Shown: positions 7,488 through 30,152 of the stretch, in pieces
Layout: every line of letters starts with the position of its first letter
How positions within the stretch are numbered: position 1 is the stretch's first letter
Origin: a phage
Length of the DNA stretch: 64,000 bases
Strand: one strand, 5' to 3'
Sequence record: NC_102531.1
Translations under genes and position numbers: made by a program
The notes under the pieces: model-generated
Databases searched by the model: none
What the model was told of the DNA's origin: nothing
The model's input: the letters and a program-made list of their open reading frames with translations, nothing else

Positions 7488-7961
7488 TTAGATAATACCT
7501 GCAAGACCTGCGAGGCCAGTAAGAGCACCAGTGATGTTATCACGGTTGAGCCATGCATCCAGAATACCGATATCCCAGTCCAGCTGACCTACTTCGGTTC
7601 CGTAAGTCAGGTCAGGCTGTTTCTGGATCCAACCAATTGTGGAAATACCAGGGCCCTGGCTACCTTCCAGCAGAACCGGGAAGAATACCAGGCCAGTAAT
7701 CGATGCCTGTTTCTGCCAGTCAGAAAGGTAAGCGTTCCATACAGAAGTGTTCTGCAAAGATACAGTCATAACACCAGATTGGTTACGAGACAGGGCAGCA
7801 GACATTTCGCCATCCACACCAACGTGAGGGTAGATGTTGTCTTCGTTTCTTGAAACAACGATCTTGGTGTCAGCAGCGAAGCCAGTGACACGCTGCTGCA
7901 TCAGATACAGTTTGACCTTTTTAGGGTCATACGCATAAGGAGTTAAAATTTGAGTTTCCAT
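7488..7961 (-). CDS. putative tail tube protein
   Basis: 157-aa ORF directly downstream of the sheath candidate and followed by a strong terminator; synteny. Confidence 0.5.
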   Translation of the reverse strand: METQILTPYAYDPKKVKLYLMQQRVTGFAADTKIVVSRNEDNIYPHVGVDGEMSAALSRNQSGVMTVSLQNTSVWNAYLSDWQKQASITGLVFFPVLLEGSQGPGISTIGWIQKQPDLTYGTEVGQLDWDIGILDAWLNRDNITGALTGLAGLAGII

Positions 7962-7971
7962 CTAGTCTTCC

Positions 7972-9348
7972 TTATTCAGTCATTGCAACAGCATTGGTGG
8001 ATTTAGAACCAACTTTGTCCAGAAGAACGTTGATCCGGATACGAACGAAGTGCAGGGCGTTGTTATACACCAGTTCTACTTTCACACCTTCCAGAACACG
8101 AGCAGCCAACTGATTGGTTGGGATTTCTGCACGTTTAGGAACTGTGATGATCGGGTCGTAGAATACATTATTGTCTTCGTCGAAACCTGTCAGGATCGCA
8201 CCATTCTTAATGCCAGTGTTGATTGGGTTGTTCATCAGGACAGACTTGATAACCGGAAGATCATCATCAGACATCTTCATGCTTAAACCCATGTTGGAGC
8301 GACGATGCATGTACCCAAACATAGATTCTTCAGATCTGAACTTGATCCAGTGTGCAAAACGAATAGCGTCTGCATACTGACCTGAAGCACACTTACCTTC
8401 CCAGAAAGCGCCAACACCGTTAATCATTCTGTAGAAGTTAACGTGGTTTTCCCAAATAGCCATACGCTGAGTTAAAGTCAGAGACGGTGCAATCACACCT
8501 GGCATCTGTTTTAAGTGCAAGCTGTCGCCGTAAGACGGATCGTTGGATGCCATAGCACCTATGATACCACCCTCCGGGAAGTCCTTATCTGCACGAGGAT
8601 CGTACATGCCGACACTGTCATATTGTGCAGCTTTCAGTTTGGTGGCGATGTTATTATCTTTACCAGTCACATCTTCTGCAGTAGAGTAGACATGCAGCTT
8701 GTAGTTAGCCTGAGCCCACTTAGCACATGCTTCGATGTCGGTGTGGTCTTCATGGCACAGGAAGTACCAATTGTCACGCTCAGCATTGATCTTATCAACT
8801 ACTGTAGAAGGTTTTTCAGCATTGGCGATATTTTTGATTGTATAGTTACCAGTATGATAACCAACGGTACAGTCACCAGTGATGGTGAGAACACCTTCAG
8901 CAGCCTCTACAGTGATATCGTTCAAGCTGTCATCTGCTTCAATTTTAGTCTTCATTGACTCTGCAATCTGAGTTGCACCTGTTCCACCAGAGATAGGCAC
9001 TATCAAAGAAGTATTGTAGCTACCTTTTGCAATAGTCATTACGACATCGGTATCAGCTGCGGCAGCAATACCTTTAAAATCTACAGTGGTCTTTTCTTTG
9101 GCCTGTCTGCCGATCATAACGTATTGTGGAGGGAATACACCACCAAAAGCTTTTGCTGCAAACTCATACGCTGCAGAGCCTTGTGCGAAACCATCTTCCA
9201 CCATCTGATCCAGCTCTGCATATACGCGAGCTCGCTCAGTAAAGTTGTTGTGGATAGCGATGAACAGGGGAGTTTCGAAACCTACAGTGTCAATAGGCTG
9301 GGTTCCGAGGTTAACTGTAACATCTACCACTTTATCTAAATATGGCAT
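7972..9348 (-). CDS. putative tail sheath protein
   Basis: 458-aa ORF upstream of tube and chaperones; size and order typical of contractile-tail sheath; no motif verified. Confidence 0.5.
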   Translation of the reverse strand: MPYLDKVVDVTVNLGTQPIDTVGFETPLFIAIHNNFTERARVYAELDQMVEDGFAQGSAAYEFAAKAFGGVFPPQYVMIGRQAKEKTTVDFKGIAAAADTDVVMTIAKGSYNTSLIVPISGGTGATQIAESMKTKIEADDSLNDITVEAAEGVLTITGDCTVGYHTGNYTIKNIANAEKPSTVVDKINAERDNWYFLCHEDHTDIEACAKWAQANYKLHVYSTAEDVTGKDNNIATKLKAAQYDSVGMYDPRADKDFPEGGIIGAMASNDPSYGDSLHLKQMPGVIAPSLTLTQRMAIWENHVNFYRMINGVGAFWEGKCASGQYADAIRFAHWIKFRSEESMFGYMHRRSNMGLSMKMSDDDLPVIKSVLMNNPINTGIKNGAILTGFDEDNNVFYDPIITVPKRAEIPTNQLAARVLEGVKVELVYNNALHFVRIRINVLLDKVGSKSTNAVAMTE

Positions 9349-9420
9349 TTGTTTCCTCTTAATATCTGTGCACGGATATCAAACACGCAGTGTAATCATT
9401 ACACTACACAATTATAACGA

Positions 9421-9972
9421 TTACTGACCACTGTCTGTAACCGCTTTACCAGAATTGGGTGAAGGGAAGTGTGTGGTTATTTCAGCCTTAATTCCCTCAA
9501 GATCCTCAAAAGCCCCAATGTCTGTTTCAACAAACCTTACGTTAAATGTCAGCATCACAGTGGCTCTATTTTCATACGTCTGCTTATTCAACGGCACTCT
9601 TTGAGGTGAGATTGTTGAATTGTTAGAGTAGGCAAAGCACGATCCCAGAGGGAAATACTTGTCATAAAACATTGGAAGGTTTATTGCTTGCAATACTCTG
9701 CTAAGTGCAGCATATGCCCTGCCACGATAAGCTGTTAGCAGATAGGTAACAGTGTAGCTGTGGGTGACGTAAGCATTACCCTCCGCATCTTGAAACTCAT
9801 TATCTTCCCAAGTGGTGGGATTGATCGCCAAGGTTTGTAAGAGTACAAACTCACCTTCCGGCTTCGGTATGGTAGAGCTTTCTGCCAGAACTACAGTTCT
9901 TCCTGTGGCAACCTTGACAAGCTTAGCAATGGCTGTTTCAAGATCAGAAAAAACTTTTTCGAAAGCTTCCAT
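9421..9972 (-). CDS. hypothetical neck / tail completion protein
   Basis: 183-aa ORF between capsid and sheath genes. Confidence 0.3.
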   Translation of the reverse strand: MEAFEKVFSDLETAIAKLVKVATGRTVVLAESSTIPKPEGEFVLLQTLAINPTTWEDNEFQDAEGNAYVTHSYTVTYLLTAYRGRAYAALSRVLQAINLPMFYDKYFPLGSCFAYSNNSTISPQRVPLNKQTYENRATVMLTFNVRFVETDIGAFEDLEGIKAEITTHFPSPNSGKAVTDSGQ

Positions 9973-10397
9973 CAGTTTTCTCCTTCAGGCTCTTCTACCA
10001 CAAAAAATCTATATCTCCCACCACCAGAGGTAACATATGCATCGCATTTTAAAACGGTAAACCATTTCAAGTCACCACGGATGTTAGGAAGTTGAATTTG
10101 ATCAGCCATTGCATATGTTCCTTCATCCGGACTATACAACTTGGTTGAGGAGTAAACTGTAAAAGCCTCGTACTGTCTGTCACCTTCAGGGTTTATTTGA
10201 GAGGAGTAATCTTTGGCTGCCCTTCCTGTCAACGGCTGCACAACACACTCTAAGACATCAAACTCTTCATACTCAAGTTCTAACCCCTCGTTGGCAAAAG
10301 GGCCACCAACTGTTTTGTTATACACTCTGTGGCGACCTTTGAATGTTTTACGAGGTATTAGTCTGTTCTTTCCTATCAGCTTATAACCTGCTGCCAC
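9972..10397 (-). CDS. hypothetical neck / head-tail joining protein
   Basis: 141-aa ORF, start/stop overlap with neighbour. Confidence 0.3.
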   Translation of the reverse strand: MAAGYKLIGKNRLIPRKTFKGRHRVYNKTVGGPFANEGLELEYEEFDVLECVVQPLTGRAAKDYSSQINPEGDRQYEAFTVYSSTKLYSPDEGTYAMADQIQLPNIRGDLKWFTVLKCDAYVTSGGGRYRFFVVEEPEGEN

Positions 10398-10412
10398 TCA
10401 ACCCCCTTATTT

Positions 10413-10883
10413 TTACTGTCCGATTTTAAAGGTTGCAGATTCAAGCAGCACATCGTAATGCCGCATAGCCTCGTTGAAGCCTTTCTCTTGTGCCCACTGC
10501 TCGCTAACAGTAGGATTACTAAACTGCCCAGCCTCAATAACAAACTGGATAGCTTTGGCCCCTGTGTCCCCCATCTGCTTAAGAATAGCCTCTGCACTTG
10601 ATCCTCTAGCCATAGCTCTCAACAATTTTTCTGTCAAGGTCTGTAATTGAGTGCTGTGAAATGCAAAGGCTGTCTCCATGAAATTGCGAACAGGCAGCCC
10701 GTTCCAACCGAAGTTGTGAATGGCTGCCAATGTTGCCATATTTAAGCCTGACGGGTGAGGTTCGTCATAAAAGCCGTAGGTTATTGTTTTACTTTCAAGT
10801 CTCACAAGTTCTTTGTAGAAGCGATCTAAACGCTTTAGGTTGAACCTTGTTTGACATTTAACCTTTAGCATTATATCCCTCAC
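10413..10883 (-). CDS. hypothetical head-tail connector protein
   Basis: 156-aa ORF in the connector region. Confidence 0.3.
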   Translation of the reverse strand: MRDIMLKVKCQTRFNLKRLDRFYKELVRLESKTITYGFYDEPHPSGLNMATLAAIHNFGWNGLPVRNFMETAFAFHSTQLQTLTEKLLRAMARGSSAEAILKQMGDTGAKAIQFVIEAGQFSNPTVSEQWAQEKGFNEAMRHYDVLLESATFKIGQ

Positions 10884-10924
10884 TAATGTATTTTACCACA
10901 AAGATACATCAAAAGCAACAATTT

Positions 10925-11602
10925 TTAAAAACTGCGTTTGCGTCTTGGGTGTCGAGGAGGTTGGTTATTTAGACCACTGATAGGTGTAATCCCCTGGACA
11001 TCGAACGGTCCGTTGCTGTTTTCATTAAATTTAACCCGAATTCCTTCGTCTACACGAACACCACCAATGATAATCATTCTGCTGTAAGCATCTAGCTCAG
11101 AATCTACATAGTCTGGGTGTGCCAGCAGCCAATCAAGGAAATCCTTCCATTGGGCGTAGGAAGATCCACCACGAATCTCTATGGTCTCATCACCTATTTT
11201 TTCCAGACGGGAAGTTATACTTGCATTACCACTGGACACTTCCTGCATCATCAGCCACCGCACAAGCTGCACAAGCACATTGTACTTAAGCAGAGGTAGC
11301 TTATCAGGGTCTGCTGGATAATTTAGTTTCAGCTTCTCCATGTCAAGGAATGTTTTAATTACCTCGTCAGGGAGGGTTTCCTCATCAACATTGCCAAGCA
11401 ACAACCTCATAATATTAATAAGGGGTTGGTCTGGATCAGGTTCCGGAGGTACAGGGTCTTCTTTTGGTGGTTCTTCTGGGGTATCAACTACACCATCATG
11501 GTTAGGCGGGGACTGGATAATCTCTTCATCTTCATACCATGCCATTTGAAAATACCTCGTAAAAATAAAGCCCCATTCCTGATTTGGAAGGGGCCTTAAC
11601 AA
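10925..11602 (-). CDS. hypothetical structural protein
   Basis: 225-aa ORF; Pro/Glu-rich linker PEEPPKEDPVPPEPDPDQP. Confidence 0.3.
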   Translation of the reverse strand: MLRPLPNQEWGFIFTRYFQMAWYEDEEIIQSPPNHDGVVDTPEEPPKEDPVPPEPDPDQPLINIMRLLLGNVDEETLPDEVIKTFLDMEKLKLNYPADPDKLPLLKYNVLVQLVRWLMMQEVSSGNASITSRLEKIGDETIEIRGGSSYAQWKDFLDWLLAHPDYVDSELDAYSRMIIIGGVRVDEGIRVKFNENSNGPFDVQGITPISGLNNQPPRHPRRKRSF

Positions 11603-11604
11603 AA

Positions 11605-12453
11605 TTATGCCAGTGCAGCCTCAAAATCTTTCATCATATTTTGGAAAGTTTTTGCCTTACTTAAGGTAACACCGTACTCTTTGGCGAAGGTTTGGAGTGC
11701 ATCTTTTGAACCACTTTTGTCATCTTCGTTGTTAAGAGCTGCGGCCTGCTGTAGTATGGCATCAACATCACTGCGAGAAGATCTTGATTCTTGTGCCTGT
11801 TCAGGATCCTGCTCAGTGCCTTCCTCCGGTGCAGTCGGGCCTTGGGATTCTTCACCACCACCACCAGGTTCAGTAGGACCTACAGGCGGCTCCGGCTCTG
11901 GTTCAGGCGGTGGAGCTATCGTAGAGACCAGTCCAAGATTTACAACCTGAGAACGTTTCTTAGGCCACTCAATGGTGAAAGTTTGGGTATCTTCTTCATA
12001 AACAATGCTGCATTGCTCATCGTTTATGGTCACTTTTTTAGGCATCCCTACAGGGTCCCATAGATGGCCCTCTGCCACGGAAACTTGGAAAGCCGCATCT
12101 ACCTCTTTAAACACTGACGGGGTGAGTGTGATATTGACATCCCCGCTTTGCAGTGTTAAAGTGCTTTCATCAAGGTTCTCTGTGAAGAACAGAAGAATAA
12201 CACCCATACGGATAGTTGAAATACCAGTATCAATTGGCAGTCCTGTATGTTTTGCAATCTTCTCGAAGAAGTCTACAATCGTTCTGCACGGATAGTGAAC
12301 ACTGCCGATAACGAATTCTGTTGGTGGCAGAAGGGCTGATAAGCCAACATTGATTTCTGGGTTATATTGTGCTAAAAATTGATAAAAACTTAACTGATTG
12401 TTGAAAACTCTTAATAGAGGATCATACTCAACTGGGTAGACGGTTCGCTTCAC
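11605..12453 (-). CDS. hypothetical structural protein with PE-rich linker
   Basis: 282-aa ORF; PPPEPEPEPPVGPTEPGGGG linker. Confidence 0.3.
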   Translation of the reverse strand: MKRTVYPVEYDPLLRVFNNQLSFYQFLAQYNPEINVGLSALLPPTEFVIGSVHYPCRTIVDFFEKIAKHTGLPIDTGISTIRMGVILLFFTENLDESTLTLQSGDVNITLTPSVFKEVDAAFQVSVAEGHLWDPVGMPKKVTINDEQCSIVYEEDTQTFTIEWPKKRSQVVNLGLVSTIAPPPEPEPEPPVGPTEPGGGGEESQGPTAPEEGTEQDPEQAQESRSSRSDVDAILQQAAALNNEDDKSGSKDALQTFAKEYGVTLSKAKTFQNMMKDFEAALA

Positions 12454-12469
12454 GGGACACTCCTGTTAA

Positions 12470-12510
12470 ACCCTAATAAATAAAAAGGGGAGGGGGAGAA
12501 CCCCCTCCCC
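12470..12510 (-). terminator. rho-independent terminator candidate
   Basis: Minus-strand GGGGAGGGGG-ttct-CCCCCTCCCC followed by TTTTTATTTATT downstream of the capsid gene. Confidence 0.65.
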
Positions 12511-12534
12511 ATATGGGATGAATCACCGTAGTGA

Positions 12535-13548
12535 TTATTCACTTTTCAGAGTTGCTTTAACAACCAGCTCTGGACGGGTGTTAACTGCCAGCATAGAGGT
12601 TTCAGATTCGATTTTCTGTTCTCTCAGGTAGGCAGAGTGTTTATACCACATATACAGTTCTTGTGCTGGGGTATTTGCATCTTCCACAGTGTCAGCTGGA
12701 GCAAAGTGCAGCTGGAACATCTGATCGATACCCATAGGCATCAGGCGAGCCTCACCGTCCGGAATGTTACCAGAGATGTCTTCGATGAAGGTCATGCCTT
12801 TGTGTTCGAACACACGGTAAATGCTCTGTTCGCCACCTGCACCCAGACGACGACGCAGCGGTTCCTGAGAAGAGCTGTAGTAGGTGTAAGCCAGCTCTAC
12901 CAGCGGATGATGAACCAGTGCAGAGAAGAATTTCGGAGAGCACAGCGCGATGATGTTGTAAGCACCAGCGTTGTCGCCAGCCTGAAGAGCAATGTGCAGA
13001 CGTGCATCTTCGATTACTTCCATCGGGTCCTGTGCTGCATTTTTAGGATCGATTTCGATAGATTTCTGGGAAACGCCCCACAGTTTGTAATAGTCATACT
13101 GACAGGTTGCATCACCAGGTGCATAGGATTTACCCAGAACTGCAGCAAAAAGAGCTTTTTCACGTAGGGTTTCGTGGCTCAGACGAATACGACGAACTAC
13201 ACGAGTAACCACGTCTTGCACAGTTTTCGGTGCATCCGGAGTGAAGTAGCGACGGAAGTTCTGAACGTCCGCAGCAGTGATTCCCTTATCCAGCGGGAAG
13301 AACGGGATGTTCAGGTTTTTGATCTGTGCACGTTCGCTATCAACGTAGTTACGTTCACCACCACGACGACGAGCGGCGATATCACCAACCACTTCATCAA
13401 CACGTTCGATCTGTGCGATTGTTGAGGTGCCAAGATGGGTTTCAAACAGATCCATACCAGTGATCAGGCGATATTGGCGCGGAACCAGTTCAAGAGTAGC
13501 ACCTAAATCAACAATACCAAAATCATCTTTACGCATTATTTTCTCCAA
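12535..13548 (-). CDS. putative major capsid protein
   Basis: 337-aa ORF downstream of scaffold and decoration-like genes, followed by a strong terminator; synteny and size. Confidence 0.5.
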   Translation of the reverse strand: MEKIMRKDDFGIVDLGATLELVPRQYRLITGMDLFETHLGTSTIAQIERVDEVVGDIAARRRGGERNYVDSERAQIKNLNIPFFPLDKGITAADVQNFRRYFTPDAPKTVQDVVTRVVRRIRLSHETLREKALFAAVLGKSYAPGDATCQYDYYKLWGVSQKSIEIDPKNAAQDPMEVIEDARLHIALQAGDNAGAYNIIALCSPKFFSALVHHPLVELAYTYYSSSQEPLRRRLGAGGEQSIYRVFEHKGMTFIEDISGNIPDGEARLMPMGIDQMFQLHFAPADTVEDANTPAQELYMWYKHSAYLREQKIESETSMLAVNTRPELVVKATLKSE

Positions 13549-13583
13549 ATAACTTTAAAATTTTGTTTCCCAAAGATCTAGGA

Positions 13584-13958
13584 TTATTCCTGAACTTTGT
13601 TGCCTTTGGCTTCGAGAGCTTCCAGAACTGCAGCAGGTGCAGCCGTGCCGCCAGCCACTTTAAGATGTTTTTTAGCGAAAGTAACGCCACGAACAGCAAC
13701 AACCAGTTTATACTTCTCGCCAACTTTCAGAGGCTCTGCCAGATTAACTTTACCAGAATCGTCAGGCAGAAGAGCGCGGTCAACCAGTACACCAAAGGTA
13801 TCTGAGCCATCTTGATTAGCCAGAGTGCCAGTTTTGGTAACTACTGCGCCAGCAACGTGATCAGCAGTAAGGGTAATTTCAATCTCTTTAAAGTTGAAAC
13901 CTGCATCGCTTGCATCTACTTTGCCGAGCACGATATCAGAATATTGAGTGGTGATCAT
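13584..13958 (-). CDS. putative head decoration / accessory capsid protein
   Basis: 124-aa Gly/Ala/Val-rich ORF between scaffold and capsid genes. Confidence 0.35.
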   Translation of the reverse strand: MITTQYSDIVLGKVDASDAGFNFKEIEITLTADHVAGAVVTKTGTLANQDGSDTFGVLVDRALLPDDSGKVNLAEPLKVGEKYKLVVAVRGVTFAKKHLKVAGGTAAPAAVLEALEAKGNKVQE

Positions 13959-13979
13959 TATTTTCCCCTATTACGCAAA

Positions 13980-14960
13980 TTATTTATTAGATTCTTTACG
14001 TGCACGAGCCAGAGCTTTAGCGACGTTTTCAGCAATAATATCTTCAGCAGATTTAGCAATGTCATCTACTACGACATCACCATCTTTGCCTTGCTCGGTA
14101 GTTGCGAACTCATCTTTAGCTTTTTCAACCTCAGCTTCCAGTTCAGCAATACGAGCTTGGGCTTTTTCCAGCAATGCAACAACAGAAGCATTAGCTTTGT
14201 CCAGCATGAATTCGACCAGAGTTGTGTGATCTTCTTCAGTAGCGAAGCTTAACGCTTGAGCTTTTTCCAGCATTTTAGCTTTTTCAACTTCTACCTGAGC
14301 CTTGATGATTTCTTCAGCTTTTTCATTGGTAGCCTTCAGTTCTTCGAACTGTTTCAGCAGGTCCAGGTACTCTTGAGACTTGGTTACGTCTTCCACCGGA
14401 TTCTCCTCGGTATTTGCGGATTTATCAACATTGTCCACAGCATCAGTAACAACCTCTTCTGTGGTTTCCTGTGCCGCTTTAATAAGTTTCCCTTCTTCAT
14501 CGAAGAGATCAGCGGTCATCTGCTCAAAAACTTGTTGGGTTTTTAACAGGGTGTATTGGTCAACAATACTTAAATCTTTACCTTCTTTAGCAGCTTTGTG
14601 AATGGTTACGTTGTCACAACGTTCTTCTAACCACCGCACACAAGCCTCTGCATCAGCCTGCGCCCACTCCCAATCTGGGTGTTCTTTTGCCCAAGCTTCT
14701 TCTTCAATCTCGAACCCGAGCAGGTGAGCCAGTGCCTTAGCATCGTCATACCACATATCGAAGAAACGACGAAGGTATTCTTCAAAGCTAAGTTCAACAG
14801 TAACTTGGCGAAGAGCCTTAACAATATCCTCTGTCAACTGCTCAGGCTGAAGATCGCTCTTCATTAAAAGAGATACAGGTCGATTGTTAGCGCTATAGCC
14901 TTGCGCCTTATGGCACAGGGCAATCCCTTTCTCTTTAATAGTGATTGTTTTTTCAGACAT
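13980..14960 (-). CDS. putative scaffolding protein
   Basis: 326-aa acidic protein with long Glu/Lys/Ala heptad-like C-terminal half; located between portal and capsid genes. Confidence 0.45.
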   Translation of the reverse strand: MSEKTITIKEKGIALCHKAQGYSANNRPVSLLMKSDLQPEQLTEDIVKALRQVTVELSFEEYLRRFFDMWYDDAKALAHLLGFEIEEEAWAKEHPDWEWAQADAEACVRWLEERCDNVTIHKAAKEGKDLSIVDQYTLLKTQQVFEQMTADLFDEEGKLIKAAQETTEEVVTDAVDNVDKSANTEENPVEDVTKSQEYLDLLKQFEELKATNEKAEEIIKAQVEVEKAKMLEKAQALSFATEEDHTTLVEFMLDKANASVVALLEKAQARIAELEAEVEKAKDEFATTEQGKDGDVVVDDIAKSAEDIIAENVAKALARARKESNK

Positions 14961-20638: not shown

Positions 20639-20715
20639 TGGTCTCCACGGAGTGATTCGAACACTCGACCTCCTGATCCCAAATCAGGCGCTCTACCAAG
20701 CTGAGCTACGCGGAG
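20639..20715 (-). tRNA. tRNA-Pro (anticodon UGG)
   Basis: Hand-folded cloverleaf: C1-G72 acceptor, D-arm GCTC/GAGC, anticodon loop TTTGGGA, T-loop TTCGAAT, encoded CCA. Confidence 0.8.
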
Positions 20716-20726
20716 TATTTACTATT

Positions 20727-20801
20727 TGGTGGCCCTGGGTGGAATTGAACCACCGTCTGGCGATTATGAGTCGCTTGCTTGAACCTTCCAGCTACAGGGC
20801 C
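20727..20801 (-). tRNA. tRNA-Met or tRNA-Ile2 (anticodon CAU)
   Basis: Hand-folded: acceptor GGCCCTG/CAGGGCC, anticodon loop CTCATAA, T-arm GGTGG-TTCAATT-CCACC, encoded CCA. Confidence 0.7.
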
Positions 20802-20802
20802 T

Positions 20803-20878
20803 TGGTGCTGATGGCAGGACTTGAACCTACAACCTATTGATTACAAATCAATTGCACTACCGATTGTGCTACATCAGC
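20803..20878 (-). tRNA. tRNA-Thr (anticodon UGU)
   Basis: Hand-folded: acceptor GCTGATG/CATCAGC, D-arm GCAC/GTGC, anticodon loop TTTGTAA, T-loop TTCAAGT, encoded CCA. Confidence 0.8.
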
Positions 20879-20883
20879 AAAAA

Positions 20884-20982
20884 GGTGCTAGGTGATGGAA
20901 TCGAACCACCTATGTATTCAACGACTACCTCGTCTATTTTCAGGATTAAAAATCCTCGCCCTTGCCAAAGGGCTTACCTAGC
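20884..20982 (-). tRNA. atypical tRNA-like gene (99 nt; anticodon loop UUUUUAA, putative UUU; roughly 30-nt variable region)
   Basis: Perfect 7-bp acceptor GCTAGGT/ACCTAGC, D-arm GCCC/GGGC, T-arm GGTGG-TTCGATT-CCATC, anticodon hairpin AGGA-TTTTTAA-TCCT; the region between anticodon and T-arm is far longer than in canonical type I or II tRNAs. Confidence 0.4.
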
Positions 20983-21080
20983 TCAGTATGTTGACCATGT
21001 TGCTAGTCGGCGATGACGACTGTAACATTTGATAATCCGGTTCTGCTTCCGGCTTTCGCTTAATTACAAGGTCAACAATG

Positions 21081-21171
21081 TGGCGGAGAGTAATGGAATC
21101 GAACCATCATCGAGTCATACCCAACGGGACGGTTTTCAAGACCGCTTGAGCACCATTGCTCCCTACCCTCC
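21081..21171 (-). tRNA. tRNA-Ser (anticodon UGA)
   Basis: Hand-folded type II tRNA: anticodon loop CTTGAAA, long variable arm, T-arm GATGG-TTCGATT-CCATT, encoded CCA. Confidence 0.75.
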
Positions 21172-21285
21172 TTTATAAATTATACTGATAATGACACTGA
21201 TTTTCGAGCAGTTAGTGACTAGTATAAACGACGATAAATATCAATGCCATTATCTGTATTATTTATGCATCTAAAAATATAAATT

Positions 21286-21372
21286 TGGTGGGGAGTGGTG
21301 GAGTCGAACCACCCGAGTCGCAATGACAATAGATTTACAGTCTACACCGCTACCTCTACGGGATAACTCCCC
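21286..21372 (-). tRNA. tRNA-Tyr (anticodon GUA)
   Basis: Hand-folded type II tRNA: acceptor GGGGAGT/ACTCCCC, anticodon stem-loop GTAGA-CTGTAAA-TCTAT, long variable arm, T-arm GGTGG-TTCGACT-CCACC, CCA. Confidence 0.7.
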
Positions 21373-21376
21373 AATT

Positions 21377-21451
21377 TGGCACCCCGTACTGGACTCGAAC
21401 CAGTGTCAACGGCTTAGAAGGCCGCTGCTTTATCCACTAAGCTAACAGGGC
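21377..21451 (-). tRNA. tRNA-Arg (anticodon UCU)
   Basis: Hand-folded: D-arm GCTT-AGTGGATA-AAGC, anticodon stem-loop GCGGC-CTTCTAA-GCCGT, T-arm CTGG-TTCGAGT-CCAG, CCA; two G-U pairs in acceptor stem. Confidence 0.7.
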
Positions 21452-23990: not shown

Positions 23991-24341
23991 CTAACCAGTT
24001 GTTGACATCCGAATAACTTCTTCTGGTGGCAAAACTTTGGAAAATGTGCATCTTTTACCTCTCCCTTGTGTGGATGTTTCAACCACTCCTGCACATTCTA
24101 AAGTTTTAACGCACGCTGCTGCTTTTGTTTTCTTTATCCCAACATCTGCTGCAATTTTCCTTGTGCTTGGTGTGAAGCGTGAATTTCCTCCAAGCTTATA
24201 CCAGTTGTGCAGGTAGCAGTATACGATCTTGTCATACAAGTCAAGAACAACAACCTCCCCAGTTGTGTCATTCAAAACTTTTGACATAGATAGTATTTCA
24301 AGGGGGACTTTAAGATATAGCAGCTTATCCCCATCTTTCAT
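23991..24341 (-). CDS. putative HTH DNA-binding protein
   Basis: 116 aa; C-terminal segment FTPSTRKIAADVGIKKTKAAACVKTLECAGVVE looks like helix-turn-helix; adjacent to the palindromic repeat array. Confidence 0.4.
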   Translation of the reverse strand: MKDGDKLLYLKVPLEILSMSKVLNDTTGEVVVLDLYDKIVYCYLHNWYKLGGNSRFTPSTRKIAADVGIKKTKAAACVKTLECAGVVETSTQGRGKRCTFSKVLPPEEVIRMSTTG

Positions 24342-24388
24342 ATCTCCTGATTCTCCTTGTGTGGCAATTTTCTTTAAAATAGCAGGGA

Positions 24389-24943
24389 TTACTCCCTGCT
24401 GTCAATATCAAAACTCATTGCAATACGGTATGCCTCTTCTAATGGTAAGAGTCTCCCCCACACATCCCAACCGACATCAAGCTGCCTGCCAAACAACTGT
24501 TGTGTGGTTCCGTGAGCATGACCGAACAGTTGGACTGATCCGTGAGGCTTTCTGTTCCACTTTGCAAACTGGTAATGGCTCATACAGATCAAATTCTTGT
24601 TGTGGCGAAGCTCGTAATAATCTACAACCTCATGACCGAACTCTTTCATAATTCTGACAGTCGTCCTTGTGTCATGGTTGCCACGAACAAGAATAATATG
24701 TCCGTTCAACATATTTAGAATATCTGGAAGTAAGTTGTTGATATTCTTATCATTAGTGCACGCAATATCTCCCAAGTGGAACACAGTGTCTGCAGGTGAC
24801 ACAACAGAGTTCCACTCGGCGATGATTCCTGCATTCATACTGTCAAGATTACGATTATACTGAGATCTGTGTTTTTGACATGAATCAAACTCCATGACCC
24901 GCTGGTGGAGAAAGTGTGTGTCGCTTGTTACAAAGTATTTCAT
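24389..24943 (-). CDS. calcineurin-like metallophosphoesterase (putative RNA 2',3'-end healing phosphatase)
   Basis: Start ATG 24943 (MKYFVTSDTHF...); motifs SDTHF, GDIACT, GNHD, GHAHG match the metallophosphatase signature. Confidence 0.65.
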   Translation of the reverse strand: MKYFVTSDTHFLHQRVMEFDSCQKHRSQYNRNLDSMNAGIIAEWNSVVSPADTVFHLGDIACTNDKNINNLLPDILNMLNGHIILVRGNHDTRTTVRIMKEFGHEVVDYYELRHNKNLICMSHYQFAKWNRKPHGSVQLFGHAHGTTQQLFGRQLDVGWDVWGRLLPLEEAYRIAMSFDIDSRE

Positions 24944-24950
24944 ACATTCC

Positions 24951-25361
24951 TCATTTAAGTTTAATGCAGTTTTTAAGCTGGCGTTCCATACGATCCACAA
25001 CCCTGTCTGGAACATCATGAATGCTTTTATTACCGTGGCGGTTTTCAACCACGATCACGGTATAACTATACCCATTACTGATTGCCATGTCAATATATTC
25101 TTGCACATGTTTTTCTTTTGTAAACGTATTACTTACCACGATACGGTCGTATCCCATACGCATCATATCTTCTACGTTATCTTTGCACCATTTTGCTGCA
25201 AGTGTTACTTTACTTGCATCCCAGTTGTAATTTCCGTCATCGTCGTACCAGAACATGTCGTTCTCAAAATGTGGATACAGACCTTCTAAAGATAGCGCAT
25301 TTGCCAGTGTTGATTTGCCAGACCCTGGTAGACCACGCACGATATATAGCATTTTAGACAT
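24951..25361 (-). CDS. P-loop polynucleotide kinase-like protein
   Basis: Start ATG 25361 with GGAGGA RBS; Walker A GLPGSGKST near N-terminus, VVSNTF later; small kinase resembling the T4 Pnkp kinase domain (from memory). Confidence 0.55.
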   Translation of the reverse strand: MSKMLYIVRGLPGSGKSTLANALSLEGLYPHFENDMFWYDDDGNYNWDASKVTLAAKWCKDNVEDMMRMGYDRIVVSNTFTKEKHVQEYIDMAISNGYSYTVIVVENRHGNKSIHDVPDRVVDRMERQLKNCIKLK

Positions 25362-25461
25362 AGTAATCCTCCGTTTTAATTTTAATGATAGTATACCTAA
25401 CTGTTTTGTTAATTTCAAGTGTTGACACTAGGTTATTTGTGTGGCAGGATAGACTGACAAA

Positions 25462-26397
25462 ATGACAAATGAGGAACGTATGATGAAGTATTTTAATGCA
25501 GACGACTTGGTTGACAAAGGTCTTGTAACCAGTAGATATTACCCAGATCTTGGGTTAAAGATCTATAAATATGCCAGAAAAGTATTTTACAACAATTTAT
25601 GGCATTTGTCCCCTCGTTTACTAGAGTGCCGAGGCATTGTTGTCGGTAATGAAGGAAATGTTGTGGCATGGCCCTTCACAAAAGTGTTTAACTTGGGAGA
25701 AAACTCCACCAACCTGCCTGACAATAAGCTTGTGACGGCGGTAGAGAAAAAGAACGGATTCCTTGGTGTGGTATCATCTCATAAAGGTGAACTATTGTTC
25801 TCAACAACCGGATCTATTGATTCTCCATATTGTAACCTCGCAAAGGAAACCATCCAGGAGCAATGTGGTAATTTAGATCTTATCAAGAAGGTTATGGGTA
25901 ATGAAAACATGACATTCATGTTTGAAATTTGTCACCCTTCAGATCCGCATATTGTTCAGGAAGATCATGGCGCATATTTGATAGGTTGCAGATATAATGA
26001 TTCTGGAATAATGCTACCAGAGGCAGCTTTAGATGGGATTGCCAAATACCTTGGTGCAAAACGTCCTCACACTGTGCGTGAAATTCCGTTCAGCTATGCA
26101 AAAGAATTAGCTGCAGAAACAAGAGGCGAAGGGTATATGATCCGTAAGCCTTACTACCCTTATGACCTGCAGCTGAAGATCAAGTCTCCATACTATCTGG
26201 CACGGAAGGCCGTAATGAGGTGTAAAGCTTGGAAGATTTGGGATGATGATATCTTTAAACGTGTTGACGAAGAGTTTTACGGCATGGTAAACTTCATTCG
26301 TAGCAATTACACAGAAGATGTGTGGAACTGTCTCCTGGAGCAGGAACGCCGCGAGATACTTGACTGCTATTTCCACAACGAGGACTATATGCAATGA
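25462..26397 (+). CDS. RNA ligase, T4 Rnl1 family
   Basis: LLECRGIVVGNEGNVVAWPFTKVFNLGEN and EKKNGFL parallel T4 Rnl1 ALECRGIMFE...KFFNLNEN and KEDGSL (recalled); alternative start ATG 25480 has the better RBS. Confidence 0.75.
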   Translation: MTNEERMMKYFNADDLVDKGLVTSRYYPDLGLKIYKYARKVFYNNLWHLSPRLLECRGIVVGNEGNVVAWPFTKVFNLGENSTNLPDNKLVTAVEKKNGFLGVVSSHKGELLFSTTGSIDSPYCNLAKETIQEQCGNLDLIKKVMGNENMTFMFEICHPSDPHIVQEDHGAYLIGCRYNDSGIMLPEAALDGIAKYLGAKRPHTVREIPFSYAKELAAETRGEGYMIRKPYYPYDLQLKIKSPYYLARKAVMRCKAWKIWDDDIFKRVDEEFYGMVNFIRSNYTEDVWNCLLEQERREILDCYFHNEDYMQ

Positions 26398-26744
26398 AGA
26401 AGTTGATTGTGTGGCTGGATGACTTGAGAGATCCGTCAAATTATGGGCTCCCAGACGCTATTTGGCTAAAGAATTCCTCCGAGTTTATGGATTTTATTGA
26501 CGATAATAGAAAGCTCTACAGACGCGTTTCTGAGTGGCATATGGACAACGACCTTGGAGAGGTATTCGAAGGGTACGATTGCCTATCTATGTTGGAGGAA
26601 AAATTTGTATTTGGTAAGCCTCCTGTAGTTGACAACGTGAAGATTTTCGTGCATACTTCTAACCCATCAGCTGCTCGTAAATTCATGCTTGCAGCTGACT
26701 CGTTTAAAAAGTTCGGAATAGAGATTAAACAAAACATCTACTGA
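26394..26744 (+). CDS. hypothetical protein translationally coupled to the RNA ligase
   Basis: ATGA overlap with the ligase stop; 116 aa; no motif recognised. Confidence 0.5.
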   Translation: MKKLIVWLDDLRDPSNYGLPDAIWLKNSSEFMDFIDDNRKLYRRVSEWHMDNDLGEVFEGYDCLSMLEEKFVFGKPPVVDNVKIFVHTSNPSAARKFMLAADSFKKFGIEIKQNIY

Positions 26745-26752
26745 GGACACTT

Positions 26753-27514
26753 ATGCGACGACTGATCATTATCTCCGGTGCTGGTTTGAGCGCTGAATCT
26801 GGTATCCCCACTTTCCGGTCTGGTGGCACTGCAATGTGGGAGAATTTCAGCATCAATGAGGTGTGTAACATCCACACCTTCGCCAAGAACTACTATAAGG
26901 TGCATGACTTTTACAATGCACGACGTGTAGCTCTGGGCAGTGTTGATCCTAACCTTGCACATCTCCGGATCGCTGAGTGGTATTCCCGCTGGTCTGGTCG
27001 TGTGATCAACATTACCACCAATGTGGATGATTTGCTGGAGCGTGCTGGTGTAAAACATGAAGATATTTTACATGTCCACGGGTATTTGCCAGAAATAGTC
27101 TATGAGGACGATGAAGGAAGTAACGTTATTAAGGACATTGGATACTCTGAGGTAGATGCAGGAAAGTATACCTGGGTTAAGCCTAATGTAGTGTTCTTCG
27201 GAGAAGTAGCTCCGAAGTATACAGACATGTACGACCTGTTGACTTCCCTTACGAGTAATGATATGGTTATCCTTGTAGGGTGTTCCAACACAGTTATCAA
27301 TTTTAACTGGGAGCTATTCCCTGCCTGCAATAAGGGAACCAAACTACTGATCGTTAACAAATACGACTCACAGCATCTAGAGGAGAATGGCATTTCACGT
27401 AGTGATATTTACCAATATGAGGATCGCGGCATCCCAGTTTGGTTTAACGGGGCGGTTGATGCTTTCTCTGATAAAACATTCATTGAGATCGTAGAAAACT
27501 TTATGGAACTTTAA
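26753..27514 (+). CDS. Sir2 (sirtuin)-family NAD-dependent enzyme, no recognisable Cys4 zinc module
   Basis: GAGLSAESGIPTFRSGG, TTNVDDL, HVHG, VVFFGE and VGCS line up with sirtuin Rossmann/catalytic motifs; no CxxC pairs between the HG and FGE motifs. Confidence 0.7.
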   Translation: MRRLIIISGAGLSAESGIPTFRSGGTAMWENFSINEVCNIHTFAKNYYKVHDFYNARRVALGSVDPNLAHLRIAEWYSRWSGRVINITTNVDDLLERAGVKHEDILHVHGYLPEIVYEDDEGSNVIKDIGYSEVDAGKYTWVKPNVVFFGEVAPKYTDMYDLLTSLTSNDMVILVGCSNTVINFNWELFPACNKGTKLLIVNKYDSQHLEENGISRSDIYQYEDRGIPVWFNGAVDAFSDKTFIEIVENFMEL

Positions 27515-27527
27515 AAGGAGACCTTTA

Positions 27528-28241
27528 ATGCTGAATACCAAATTGATTGACAACCTGGAAAAACTGTCCCAACCTGAAAACTACCTTTGGTCTGCTAACT
27601 GGGTGGAAAACTGGAACCGTGTGGCAGCTAAAGTGAAAAAATCATACACACCGTTCGAATTACAGCTTAGCTTCATTGAGGAAGAGTTCAATGAAGTTTT
27701 GGAAGAGCTGGAGAAAGGTGATGGTGGAGATCACCTGCTAAAAGAGGCCTGCGATCTTCACGTTGTCACAAGTTATGCCGCTTATCTTGTTAATGACAAT
27801 CACGAAAAGTGGTCAAGCCTGTTTGATAATCCACGAGGCCTTAAGTTCAAGATCGGTGAGTTCTATGATACCCTGATCGCTGCGAAAAACACACCTAAGC
27901 AAAGAGCGTCAGCTTACCGCTTAGCGGAGTTGTCAACAGCTTTGCTGTTCCAGCTTCGCGGCGATGTGTGCGGGATGATGCGTAAGGTTCTCAAATCGAA
28001 TGACAGCAAGTTTGCAAAGATTAACCATCTACGGTATTCACACGGTGCCAGTGCAGATATGCCTGCTGAACAACTCGTAGAGTTGGAGATTAAAGATCTT
28101 GAGCGACGCTTTGATGGTCGATATGAAGGTTTTGTTGCTAAGGAAGAATTCTACAACGGTAATAAAGTTATCATATTCCTTGACAGTAAAGGTAAGATCA
28201 TGAAGCCTTCAAGCTTCAAGGATGTAACAGAGTATATTTAA
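27528..28241 (+). CDS. MazG-like nucleotide pyrophosphohydrolase domain protein (N-terminal) with uncharacterised C-terminal half
   Basis: EEEFNEVLEELEKGDGGDHLLKEACDLHVV resembles the MazG/HisE all-alpha E-x2-E...E-x2-D metal-binding signature; 237 aa. Confidence 0.4.
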   Translation: MLNTKLIDNLEKLSQPENYLWSANWVENWNRVAAKVKKSYTPFELQLSFIEEEFNEVLEELEKGDGGDHLLKEACDLHVVTSYAAYLVNDNHEKWSSLFDNPRGLKFKIGEFYDTLIAAKNTPKQRASAYRLAELSTALLFQLRGDVCGMMRKVLKSNDSKFAKINHLRYSHGASADMPAEQLVELEIKDLERRFDGRYEGFVAKEEFYNGNKVIIFLDSKGKIMKPSSFKDVTEYI

Positions 28242-28248
28242 CAACATA

Positions 28249-28275
28249 GCCGGGATCACCCGGCTTTACTTGTTG
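28249..28275 (+). terminator. hairpin plus weak U-tract
   Basis: AGCCGGG-atca-CCCGGCT followed by TTACTTGTTG. Confidence 0.35.
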
Positions 28276-28283
28276 TGGAAAGT

Positions 28284-28613
28284 ATGCAAGTGAGGCAGAT
28301 AGTTATGTACAAGCACTCCAGAGATCTTGAAAACGATGCTGTGTTTGGGGATCAGATGAAAGAGTTGGTTAAACTCATAGGCAGAATAGAGGATAAGTTT
28401 GACACTAAGATCTACATCGACAGCAAAGTATTCAACCACAAAATATGGACAAATCTGTGTGTTGGACTACATGGAGATAAAGATGTGGTAAATTTAGTTG
28501 TAATTAAGTTCATAGTGTGGCAGAATAAAACTATAAATTATTACGATCCACACCTGCTGGTTTACCCGATAAAAGACCTATTAGATAAGGAGGACTGCAA
28601 TGCCGTTATTTAA
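28284..28613 (+). CDS. hypothetical protein
   Basis: ORF with ATG 28284 (track start 28275 is GTG). Confidence 0.4.
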   Translation: MQVRQIVMYKHSRDLENDAVFGDQMKELVKLIGRIEDKFDTKIYIDSKVFNHKIWTNLCVGLHGDKDVVNLVVIKFIVWQNKTINYYDPHLLVYPIKDLLDKEDCNAVI

Positions 28614-28869
28614 TCTTGCTAAACCTGTAGAAGCACACCAGTTTGACGGAAGCTCTTCATCAGTATCTGATCTGCAACGGTGGATTGATACAGGTGTGTT
28701 TACATCGTCACCTGTTCGGACCAGAGATCTTCGTCGCATGTGTGAGCTTGTAGAGCCGTTTGGTAACCTAGTCTTGTACCATGGAGATTGGTTAGTTGAC
28801 TTTATGGGAGACTGGTTGGTAATGAGTAAAGAAGAGATGTTTAAAATTTTTAAGGAAGAGGCCGAGTAA
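28600..28869 (+). CDS. hypothetical protein
   Basis: 89 aa, AAGGAGG RBS. Confidence 0.45.
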   Translation: MPLFNLAKPVEAHQFDGSSSSVSDLQRWIDTGVFTSSPVRTRDLRRMCELVEPFGNLVLYHGDWLVDFMGDWLVMSKEEMFKIFKEEAE

Positions 28870-30152
28870 TGCATCAAATCAAAACAACACTGTACGCACT
28901 GAATAAAGATGGCAGCTACCAACAGTGGAAAGTATTCACGGATGGTGATAAGGTTATCGTAGAGTTTGGCAAGCTTGATGGTAAACTGCAATACAAAGAG
29001 ACGATCTGCACACCTAAGAACGTGGGTCGCGCCAATGAAACTACAGCTGAGCAACAGGCCGAGCTGGAAGCGATCAGTAAGTGGGAAAAACAGGTCCGAC
29101 TTGGGTACGTGGAGAGTATGGAAGATTGTGAGCAAGGTGTTGATCTTCTACCCATGTTGGTGCATGACTACCTGAAGCGTGGCAAGGCACTTAAATTACC
29201 TTGCTGGATCTTGCGTAAGTTAGATGGCCTTCGTCTACTTGTTGTTTTCCAGAATGGTGAGCCTAAATTTATTTCCCGTGGTAATAAGTCCTACCCTATT
29301 CAAGGGAAGCTTCTGGAGCAACTTCGCTCTTTCCACCTAACCACCGGGATTAAACAGCTCGACGGAGAGCTCTATATTCATGGTCTGCCTCTGCAGAAAA
29401 TAGTATCTCTTGCTAAACGGTGGCGCACACAGGAAGAAATTCAGGCCGAGATCGATAAAGACTACGAGGCAGATAAAAAACGCCGTCAGGCTGCGATTAA
29501 AGCAGGTTTAGCAACATACAAAAACTTCAACAAGATGGACATTCCTGTTGATGTTGAGCCTGTTCGTGATGATTTGCGTTACGGAGGGTACTGCAGCTAC
29601 GACTTAGAGTATCATATTTTCGATATTCCTAGCGATAAGGTGTGGTGGGATCCTGAAACAGAGTCTGGACGCTGTAAGGATCTTATGGAGGCAAATGGTG
29701 CTATTGCTTCTTTGATGCTTGATCATATTAAGGTTGTTGATGCAGAGCTTGCATACACAGTTGATCGGTGCGAAGAGTCTGTTGGTATATTTATGTCTGA
29801 GGGATATGAAGGTACCATTATGCGTAACTTCTGTGGTAAATATGAGTATGGTCAGCGAACATCTGAAGCATTGAAATGGAAAAAGTTCAACGACGCAGAG
29901 GTGAAAGTTATTGACGTTGAGAAAGATAAGAATGATGAAGGTGTTCTTATCTGTGTTGACAAGGAAGGTGTTGTTGTTAAAATGAAGATGAAAGGCACGC
30001 ACGAGGAGCGTAGCTATGACAGGATGCAGGAAATGATCGGCAAGTTTATCACCTTCAAATACCAAGCAAGGACAGAAGACAACAACTACCAATTCCCTGT
30101 CGGTATCTGCGTTCGAAATGTTAACCCAGACACTTGGGAGGTGCTGGAATGA
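28869..30152 (+). CDS. ATP-dependent polynucleotide (DNA) ligase
   Basis: 427 aa; nucleotidyltransferase motif I KLDGLR (KxDGxR); TAATG overlap with upstream gene. Confidence 0.6.
   Translation: MHQIKTTLYALNKDGSYQQWKVFTDGDKVIVEFGKLDGKLQYKETICTPKNVGRANETTAEQQAELEAISKWEKQVRLGYVESMEDCEQGVDLLPMLVHDYLKRGKALKLPCWILRKLDGLRLLVVFQNGEPKFISRGNKSYPIQGKLLEQLRSFHLTTGIKQLDGELYIHGLPLQKIVSLAKRWRTQEEIQAEIDKDYEADKKRRQAAIKAGLATYKNFNKMDIPVDVEPVRDDLRYGGYCSYDLEYHIFDIPSDKVWWDPETESGRCKDLMEANGAIASLMLDHIKVVDAELAYTVDRCEESVGIFMSEGYEGTIMRNFCGKYEYGQRTSEALKWKKFNDAEVKVIDVEKDKNDEGVLICVDKEGVVVKMKMKGTHEERSYDRMQEMIGKFITFKYQARTEDNNYQFPVGICVRNVNPDTWEVLE

Follow-up and report, generated by a model that had tools for sequence, protein, structure and literature searches.

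The window studied here is a 64,000-nucleotide stretch of a phage genome (sequence record NC_102531.1), and between positions 24389 and 28241 it carries six genes that we read as an RNA break-repair module of rV5-type phages, in which broken RNA ends would be healed, sealed and passed through a step dependent on nicotinamide adenine dinucleotide (NAD). We place the probability of this reading at about 60%. The core of kinase, end-healing enzymes and ligase is very probably devoted to RNA repair; the part given to the sirtuin, an NAD-dependent step on RNA ends, is tentative; and membership of the MazG-like protein in the pathway is doubtful. All six genes are packed into 3.9 kb. Their open reading frames have the coordinates and strands given in the first-pass annotation, an earlier description made from the sequence of the window, and its family calls hold. 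The window belongs to an rV5-like phage of the genus Vequintavirus: along its entire length, region 24000-28600 shares 97.6% identity with over 100 sequenced rV5-like phages, members of the BASEL collection included. The locus consists of the following features.

24389..24943, minus strand: calcineurin-like metallophosphoesterase, 184 amino acids (Pfam Metallophos/Metallophos_2, phrog_547)
24951..25361, minus strand: minimal P-loop kinase of the polynucleotide 5′-kinase type, 136 amino acids (AAA_33, phrog_505)
25362..25479, no strand: divergent intergenic region between the kinase-phosphoesterase pair and the ligase operon (sigma-70-like sites, GC skew)
25462..26397, plus strand, probable start 25480: Rnl1-type ATP-dependent RNA ligase (PF09511, phrog_562)
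26394..26744, plus strand: cREC protein, 116 amino acids, receiver-like domain (PF20274)
26753..27514, plus strand: zinc-ribbon-less sirtuin, 253 amino acids, class III-derived (CobB/SIRT5-like; PF02146)
27528..28241, plus strand: all-alpha nucleoside triphosphate (NTP) pyrophosphohydrolase of the MazG/dimeric-dUTPase superfamily, 237 amino acids, with a C-terminal beta-hairpin (phrog_671, fold)
28248..28265, no strand: G+C-rich hairpin (stem-loop), probable end of the four-gene rightward unit

The combination of genes was already in print, and the same reading of it had been arrived at independently. Iyer, Burroughs, Anantharaman and Aravind (2022, Viruses 14:1977; PMC9503650) described the exact phage V5 neighbourhood and proposed NAD-dependent RNA repair, in which the sirtuin removes RNA 2′-phosphates in the manner of Tpt1/KptA.

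The probable end-healing and sealing core

The ligase matches PF09511 (RNA_lig_T4_1) with 56.4 bits against a gathering cutoff of 28.3, and phrog_562 at 1e-65. Its start is most likely the ATG at 25480, giving 305 amino acids instead of 311; GAGGA lies 5 nt before this codon, and a BASEL relative is annotated from 25480 too. It is 27% identical to T4 Rnl1 over 182 amino acids, with K96 aligned to the T4 nucleophile K99. Among 11 homologues motif I (K96-K-N98-G99), motif III (E155), motif IV (E223-G224) and motif V (K239-x-K241) are invariant, as are R57, K74 and F76, the counterparts of T4 R54, K75 and F77, while Thr116 occupies the position of T4 K119. Searches of the PDB with single sequences of the ligase, the kinase and the MazG-like protein were unhelpful, and profiles were used instead. 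The 11-homologue ligase profile, run against all PDB sequences, matches only T4 Rnl1 (2c5u, 9e-9), from motif I to beyond motif V, which places the protein in the family named by the first-pass annotation. The NCBIfam equivalog for T4 RnlA (TIGR02308) gives 40.8 bits against a cutoff of 242, and by these scores the ligase is a member of a distant T4 Rnl1 subfamily and not a T4 Rnl1 orthologue. A placement nearer fungal Trl1 was also attempted; the ligase profile found no Trl1 structure in the PDB, the T4 Rnl1 match being the only one. The Asn of motif I (K-x-N-G) is as in yeast Trl1. In Trl1 itself, a His-Arg-Arg triad imposes dependence on a 2′-phosphate (PMC11404444).

The kinase matches Pfam AAA_33 at 9.5e-10 and phrog_505, ‘polynucleotide kinase’, at 1.6e-9, and it also matches the kinase part of a fused kinase-ligase family, phrog_8238. 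When a profile of 11 homologues was searched against the PDB, polynucleotide kinases ranked first and not (deoxy)nucleoside monophosphate kinases: the top match was Capnocytophaga Pnkp1 (4xrp, 1.8e-6), with T4 Pnkp at 1.5e-5 and 2.1e-5, the kinase of CthPnkp at 2e-5, and the Rhizopus RNA kinase, a fungal RNA 5′-kinase, also among the top matches. Deoxynucleoside and thymidylate kinases were 100 to 10,000 times weaker, and gluconate and nucleoside kinases were likewise far lower. The PHROG match and this ranking rule out a deoxynucleoside monophosphate kinase. The P-loop (G10-x-x-G13-x-G15-K16-S17-T18) and D35 are invariant among the homologues, and in the alignment D35 falls on the catalytic Asp of T4 Pnkp (‘NRDDY’) and on that of Cth Pnkp (‘SSDF’).

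The phosphoesterase scores above the gathering threshold for Metallophos and Metallophos_2 and matches phrog_547 at 9e-52. Its dinuclear metal-binding motif set is complete: none of D8-x-H10, G58-D59, G88-N89-H90, H123 or G141-H142-x-H144 varies among 17 homologues. In the PDB its profile finds one close relative, Aquifex aq_1665 (1xm7, 1e-16); GpdQ and YfcE match weakly, and neither Pnkp nor lambda phosphatase is matched. The protein is a candidate healer of 2′/3′-phosphate or cyclic-phosphate ends, or a candidate processor of an ADP-ribose phosphate by-product. Kinase, phosphoesterase and ligase thus belong, to judge from profiles and motifs, to the families expected for RNA end healing and sealing, as had been suggested from the first look at the sequence.

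The cREC protein

The 116-amino-acid protein encoded behind the ligase, left as an unknown by the first-pass annotation, belongs to a named family: it matches PF20274 (cREC_REC) with 54.5 bits against a cutoff of 27 (1.9e-14). Invariant residues include D9 D10, H49-x-D51-N-D53, H87-x-S89-N-P and K96, so that the receiver-type aspartates D9, D10 and D51/D53 are retained. The family was defined by Iyer et al. (2021; PMC7824862), who predicted that it processes cyclic phosphates, and its activity is uncharacterised across the whole family (PMC9503650). The 116-amino-acid protein is accordingly predicted to open 2′,3′-cyclic or 1′′,2′′-cyclic phosphates. For a comparative view, 58 viral loci with a zinc-less sirtuin (IMG/VR) and 16 with cREC were collected, and their open reading frames were searched with profiles of the window proteins. 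In 12 of these 16 cREC loci the gene lies inside the cluster of ligase and phosphoesterase, the remaining four including a 585-bp fragment and three distant loci that had no detected module gene nearby. One group of phages of ~147-149 kb has no detectable cREC, and a 2H phosphoesterase was sought there as a substitute; the open reading frames at that position had no Pfam match. In one member of the group (L040, 9302-9790, plus strand) this position holds a 162-amino-acid open reading frame after the kinase, again with no Pfam match, and a 75-amino-acid open reading frame is alone between it and the sirtuin, as checked in that locus. The equivalent position is also present in L050 and L054. The 162-amino-acid product is a candidate replacement for cREC.

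A sirtuin that has lost its zinc ribbon

The sirtuin matches PF02146 (SIR2) at 5.9e-27, and its best PDB sequence matches are SIRT5 and CobB. An AlphaFold2 model (pLDDT 85) has CobB as its top Foldseek match, with a TM score of 0.83. Invariant residues of the clade include GAGxS (S16-G17), F21-R22, Y54/R57, N90-x-D92 and H109-G110; the catalytic His109, the NAD-binding motifs and the FGE loop are all kept. Y54 and R57, which align with Y102 and R105 of SIRT5, are invariant in the clade. In SIRT5 this Tyr/Arg dyad binds the carboxylate of succinyl-lysine. The Cys pairs of the zinc ribbon are absent between HG and FGE in 21 of 21 clade members, and the model places a Cys-free hairpin at 110-128, where the ribbon would be. 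The zinc ribbon forms part of the peptide-binding cleft of sirtuins. Zinc-less sirtuins of this kind, with the motif ‘TTNVD’, make up at least 31 of the 150 best-matching cluster representatives from a library of 1.84 billion proteins. Against the NCBIfam CobB models the protein falls below every cutoff, the best score being 122 bits against 243. Because of the zinc-less TTNVD form and these CobB scores, the protein is, on its sequence characters, a member of a distinct clade and not a CobB orthologue.

Its proposed function is that of an NAD-dependent remover of 2′-phosphates or an ADP-ribosyltransferase. It has the Sir2 fold and shows no homology to Tpt1, which has the ADP-ribosyltransferase (ART) fold, so a relation between the two would be one of functional analogy only. 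Fusions of the zinc-less sirtuin to RNA-repair domains were not found among the best 150 of the 1.84 billion representatives; the ten longest proteins carry only SIR2, one of them with WG repeats.

Gene neighbourhoods in related phages

Among related phages of ~90-153 kb, whose proteins are 40-60% identical to those of the window, the gene set stays together on one strand in the order orf112, phosphoesterase, RNA ligase, cREC, kinase, sirtuin, DNA ligase, orf89, MazG-like gene. A DNA ligase is within the cluster in every related phage examined. Since the relatives keep the set on one strand and place the MazG-like gene after the DNA ligase, two traits of the window are specific to Vequintavirus: its divergent layout and the placing of the MazG-like gene directly behind the sirtuin.

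The zinc-less sirtuin also occurs beside other enzymes. HAD_SAK_2 is found within 1.3 kb of it in 28 of the 58 loci, chiefly in T5-like phages. On a contig with T4-phage-type genes (L081, 4917-7181) the order is RlaP-Sir2-NADAR, and in a 608-kb jumbo phage (L057, 7582-10705) it is Rnl1 ligase-arginase-Sir2, with 1.2 kb between ligase and sirtuin. In two marine phage contigs (L082, 6001-7888, and L083, 531-4423), Sir2 is followed by a 389-amino-acid NadR-like nicotinamide mononucleotide (NMN) adenylyltransferase (CTP_transf_like plus CoaE kinase), and L083 has HAD_SAK_2 near Sir2 as well. The first-pass suggestion that the sirtuin might supply an NAD-dependent step stands in part: the zinc-less clade recurs beside RNA-end enzymes in unrelated phages, which fits such a step on RNA ends, but sirtuin and ligase module can be found apart.

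Some loci depart from the common pattern. In L072 and L073, which are phi92-like, the intact sirtuin-free cluster spans ~7950-14150, and the sirtuins of the same contigs are loci L035 and L034. Locus L074 keeps cREC, phosphoesterase, DNA ligase and MazG-like protein; its RNA ligase and kinase were undetected by the profiles.

The MazG-like protein and its DNA-ligase companions

The product of the last gene was called MazG-like in the first-pass annotation. It reaches 13.7 bits against 21.3 with Pfam PRA-PH, which is below threshold, matches phrog_671 (‘nucleotide pyrophosphohydrolase’) at 4e-22 and has no NCBIfam match; some homologues carry a precomputed PF01503 match. Its fold is a helical bundle in which EExxE and an Asp further downstream provide the metal ligands, the nearest fold being that of the dimeric dUTPases (all-alpha NTP pyrophosphohydrolases), and it has an additional C-terminal beta-hairpin with an invariant GKIxKP motif. 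The first-pass call as a pyrophosphohydrolase-like protein holds, but a role in RNA repair is doubtful because the fold is dUTPase-like and because in the relatives the gene travels with the DNA ligase and not with the sirtuin. Immediately to the right of the hairpin the window continues as follows.

28275-28613 and 28600-28869, plus strand: two small open reading frames, no Pfam match (phrog_7684, phrog_14585)
28869-30152, plus strand: ATP-dependent DNA ligase (Pfam DNA_ligase_A_M and OB_2)

Homologues of both small open reading frames and of the DNA ligase are kept in the cluster in the phages of ~90-153 kb, with differing gene order. The two small frames may be unrecognised parts of the module.

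Proposed mechanism and competing explanations

The proposed pathway would begin with host anticodon nucleases or other metal-independent RNases, which would leave tRNA with 2′,3′-cyclic phosphate and 5′-hydroxyl ends. The 5′-hydroxyl would be phosphorylated by the kinase, the cyclic phosphate would be opened and removed by cREC and/or the metallophosphoesterase, and the break would be sealed by the Rnl1-type ligase. If opening were to leave a 2′-phosphate (the situation on the Trl1 route of fungi), it would be removed by the sirtuin with NAD+. In this reaction a phosphate oxygen would attack C1′′ of NAD+, and the His-activated ribose 2′′-hydroxyl would then attack phosphorus, a sequence that would formally parallel both Tpt1/KptA and ordinary sirtuin deacylation. 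The by-product, ADP-ribose cyclic phosphate, might be cleared by cREC, the phosphoesterase or the pyrophosphohydrolase. Such chemistry is plausible for a sirtuin because the Tpt1 reaction and sirtuin deacylation share a two-step logic, in which a substrate oxygen attacks C1′′ of NAD+ and the ribose 2′′-hydroxyl then attacks the electrophilic centre of the substrate (for Tpt1, PMC11417386). His109 and the anion-binding dyad of the window sirtuin would fit 2′-phosphate removal. In its strongest form, the proposal makes the zinc-less sirtuin a true RNA 2′-phosphotransferase, a non-homologous analogue of Tpt1/KptA that re-uses the class III Tyr/Arg dyad to hold the phosphate. Together with cREC as a non-2H cyclic phosphodiesterase, it would amount to a phage re-invention of Trl1/Tpt1. 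We think this form, already published as a prediction, rather unlikely.

Several observations weigh against a module with an NAD-dependent step. His109 and the Tyr/Arg dyad fit a desuccinylase equally well. An intact metallophosphoesterase could by itself finish the healing of the 3′ end, by analogy with bacterial Pnkp, leaving nothing for the sirtuin. T4 Rnl1 needs no 2′-phosphate, and as the window ligase is T4 Rnl1-like and has no Trl1 match, a 2′-phosphate junction is not required by the data. In phi92-like phages (~149 kb) the cluster consists of cREC, phosphoesterase, RNA ligase, kinase, DNA ligase and MazG-like protein with no sirtuin; on phi92-like contigs the sirtuin is encoded ~30 kb from the ligase cluster, and in another member of that group it lies amid unannotated small genes. 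An RNA-repair neighbour was undetected in 19 of the 58 sirtuin loci at the search sensitivity applied, and the loci are phylogenetically non-independent, representing perhaps five or six lineages. Finally, experimental activity for the module proteins, for any cREC or for any sirtuin of this clade was not found in open-access papers and preprints. A search of the same literature for phage sirtuins, cREC and rV5 RNA repair returned only the comparative papers of the Aravind group (PMC7824862; PMC9503650). Papers on NARP3 and DarTG1 were considered and have no bearing on the locus.

Alternatively, the locus might have broader duties at nucleic-acid ends and in DNA-precursor metabolism instead of being a dedicated tRNA-repair island. 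Kinase and phosphoesterase would then help the adjacent ATP-dependent DNA ligase to mend DNA nicks as well, and the MazG-like protein, a dUTPase or dNTP (deoxynucleoside triphosphate) house-cleaning enzyme, would have no part in RNA repair. T4 Pnkp acts on DNA and RNA ends alike, which counts for this explanation. The DNA ligase stays in the cluster throughout the relatives examined, the MazG-like gene follows it there, and DNA exonucleases, thymidylate synthase and ribonucleotide reductases are encoded downstream. However, an Rnl1-type RNA ligase and cREC have no known DNA role, and only 13 nt, free of any terminator-like site, separate the sirtuin from the start of the MazG-like gene in the window. 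The phosphoesterase does match PdeM, a ligase-associated DNA-damage phosphoesterase, but at 21 bits against 150, far under the cutoff. MazG is moreover listed as a recurrent partner by Iyer et al. (PMC9503650). We hold this general role to be a serious but minority possibility.

A different explanation concerns the sirtuin only. It could be protein-directed, acting early in infection as a lysine deacylase (desuccinylase or deacetylase) or a protein ADP-ribosyltransferase that remodels host or phage proteins, with its adjacency to the ligase reflecting no more than a shared early/middle block. In sequence and fold it is nearest to CobB and SIRT5, both of them protein deacylases, and neither the catalytic His nor the FGE loop has been lost; the Tyr/Arg dyad, which binds succinyl and malonyl carboxylates, is likewise kept. 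The gap of ~30 kb between sirtuin and ligase module in phi92-like phages, the 19 of 58 loci with no recognisable RNA-repair neighbour and the absence of RNA-repair fusions among the best 150 representatives point the same way. This explanation has to account, however, for a zinc ribbon lost throughout the clade, for CobB scores far below the NCBIfam cutoffs, and for a clade that adjoins HAD_SAK_2, RlaP, Rnl1, cREC and a PNK-type kinase in several unrelated phage lineages. Nor is there an adjoining macro domain, as accompanies protein-ADP-ribosylating sirtuins (PMC9503650). A protein-directed role is somewhat improbable on this balance.

Very improbable is a counter-defence role outside RNA repair, in which the sirtuin would consume or modify NAD-derived signals of NAD-based immunity: some distant clade members do adjoin NadR-like NMN adenylyltransferase, NADAR and a nucleoside deoxyribosyltransferase-like protein, and Vequintavirinae carry further NAD/ADP-ribose counter-defence genes such as that of the NADAR protein AdfN (PMC11825919), but a sirtuin uses up NAD+ and would worsen host NAD depletion, no known immune signal serves as a sirtuin substrate, and RNA-end enzymes are the most frequently recurring neighbours.

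Transcription units

The rightward genes are closely spaced. The ligase stop and the cREC start share 4 nt (ATGA), cREC and the sirtuin gene are separated by 8 nt, and the sirtuin and MazG-like genes by 13 nt. No terminator-like site was found between the ligase and the hairpin at 28248-28265, and with this tight packing the sirtuin belongs to the ligase operon, as first supposed. The hairpin, 7 nt past the MazG-like stop, has a 7-pair stem (6 G-C), a loop of 4 and a T-rich tail; it serves as a consistency argument only, because terminator-like sites are no more numerous in the region than in shuffles.

In the intergenic region 25362..25479, sigma-70-like sites face leftward at 25418-25390 and 25412-25385, each with 10/12 matches, and the sigma-70 scan gave no convincing rightward promoter there. 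The same scan gave a promoter-like site inside the operon at 26629-26657, upstream of the sirtuin. The scan yielded 23 sites against 16.2 +/- 5.1 in shuffles, and because this total is not above the shuffles, neither the missing rightward promoter nor the internal site was used as evidence. The divergent arrangement pointed out in the first-pass annotation is present as described, but it coincides with a genome-wide switch of transcription and GC skew at ~25.4 kb, and in related phages the genes are on a single strand.

Genomic setting and database records

The locus stands at the junction of two blocks, a leftward one with structural, lysis and tRNA genes and a rightward one with DNA ligase, exonucleases, thymidylate synthase and ribonucleotide reductases, and the sign of the GC skew flips there, at ~25.4 kb. 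Directly downstream of the phosphoesterase (23991-24341, minus strand) is the gene of a 116-amino-acid helix-turn-helix protein (DUF6945/HTH_36; phrog_12838, ‘replication initiation protein’). Close as it is to the GC-skew switch (~25 kb), it may mark the neighbourhood of a replication origin. The nearby tRNA genes noted in the first-pass annotation were recovered 4 kb from the ligase and 2.9 kb from the phosphoesterase.

20639..21451, minus strand: array of seven phage tRNA genes (ARAGORN, Rfam)

We treat the array as context only; its tRNAs are possible substrates of the module, or a possible bypass of anticodon nucleases. One member (20884-20982, minus strand) is a tRNA-like gene of 97-99 nt that ARAGORN leaves untyped (‘anticodon atcc’) and Rfam scores at 35.5 bits. 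Read directly, its anticodon loop is TTTTTAA, so that the anticodon is UUU (Lys), and an extra arm of ~25-30 nt comes after it; in a BASEL relative the gene is annotated as tRNA-Lys. So long a variable arm is unusual in tRNA-Lys(UUU), the tRNA targeted by PrrC and PARIS.

Records of rV5-like phages annotate the six products as phosphoesterase, polynucleotide kinase/ATPase, RNA ligase, hypothetical protein, Sir2-family deacetylase and, for the last gene, hypothetical protein or nucleotide pyrophosphohydrolase. In the RefSeq record NC_041869.1 (L063, 21481-22745) the names are seemingly shifted: the 305-amino-acid ligase is a ‘hypothetical protein’ and the 116-amino-acid cREC protein a ‘putative RNA ligase and tail attachment protein’. 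The name ‘Campylobacter phage’ is borne by 18 records that match this E. coli-phage region, 24000-28600, over its full length, and 16 of them give Campylobacter jejuni as host. One listed record, MG065655, is ~97% identical to the region. The host attribution of these records seems doubtful.

Comparison with known systems

Cleavage of tRNA is a common bacterial weapon against phages, and to our knowledge T4 Pnkp/Rnl1 is the sole repair route studied in depth. Were the sirtuin to remove RNA 2′-phosphates, sirtuin chemistry would extend to nucleic acids, with a first sirtuin acting on a nucleic-acid phosphate and not on acyl-lysine. There would be a second, independent solution to the Tpt1 reaction, and RNA repair would be coupled to the NAD+ economy, itself under attack by many defence systems. 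The discovery value of the locus is small, since neighbourhood and hypothesis were published in 2022; the worth of the rV5-type module is rather that it offers a clearly delimited lead for experiments in a tractable E. coli phage, and the novelty would lie in demonstrating the chemistry. Because these phages are genetically tractable in E. coli and close relatives are held in BASEL, the sirtuin question is directly testable.

The module resembles the T4 Pnkp and Rnl1 pair that counters PrrC in having a 5′-kinase, 3′-end healing and an Rnl1-family ligase. The window kinase, however, is a stand-alone protein of 136 amino acids, and 3′ healing presumably falls to the metallophosphoesterase and/or cREC and not to a HAD phosphatase, while the ligase scores far below the T4 RnlA equivalog and is 60-70 amino acids shorter at its C terminus. 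The sirtuin and the NTP pyrophosphohydrolase, set outside the classical T4 system by the first-pass annotation, indeed have no T4 counterpart. The bacterial systems Pnkp/Hen1 (Clostridium thermocellum) and Pnkp1-Rnl-Hen1 (Capnocytophaga) hold the same trio of P-loop kinase, calcineurin-type phosphoesterase and ATP-dependent ligase. In contrast to these, the window proteins are unfused, the ligase is of the Rnl1 type, the phosphoesterase is not specifically Pnkp-like, and a Hen1 methyltransferase was not seen in the cluster.

The proposed logic is like that of fungal and plant Trl1 and Tpt1, where a cyclic phosphodiesterase leaves a 2′-phosphate, a 5′-kinase and an Rnl1-superfamily ligase act, and the 2′-phosphate is removed with NAD+; the window would use cREC instead of a 2H enzyme and a sirtuin instead of the ART-fold Tpt1. 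With CobB and SIRT5 the window sirtuin shares the Rossmann core, the NAD-binding motifs, the catalytic His and the Tyr-x-x-Arg dyad, but it has a Cys-free beta-hairpin in place of the zinc ribbon and TTNVD in place of TQNID, and it is phage-encoded and linked to RNA-end enzymes. The MazG-like protein stands outside the sequence-level families of the dimeric dUTPases, MazG and HisE, and differs from them in its C-terminal beta-hairpin.

The closest precedent is the type 2 sirtuin neighbourhood of Escherichia phage V5 and Proteus phage Mydo (PMC9503650). That set, of V5-like phages, comprises sirtuin, T4-like tRNA ligase, cREC, nucleotide kinase, MazG pyrophosphatase and, optionally, a calcineurin-like phosphoesterase. 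The gene set of the window is identical, the phage genus is the same, and nothing essential differs. What the present analysis adds is the assignment of the kinase to the PNK type, the dUTPase-like fold of the MazG-like protein and its linkage to the DNA ligase, the detachability of the sirtuin seen in phi92-like phages, and the recognition of a DNA ligase and two small open reading frames as constant companions of the module.

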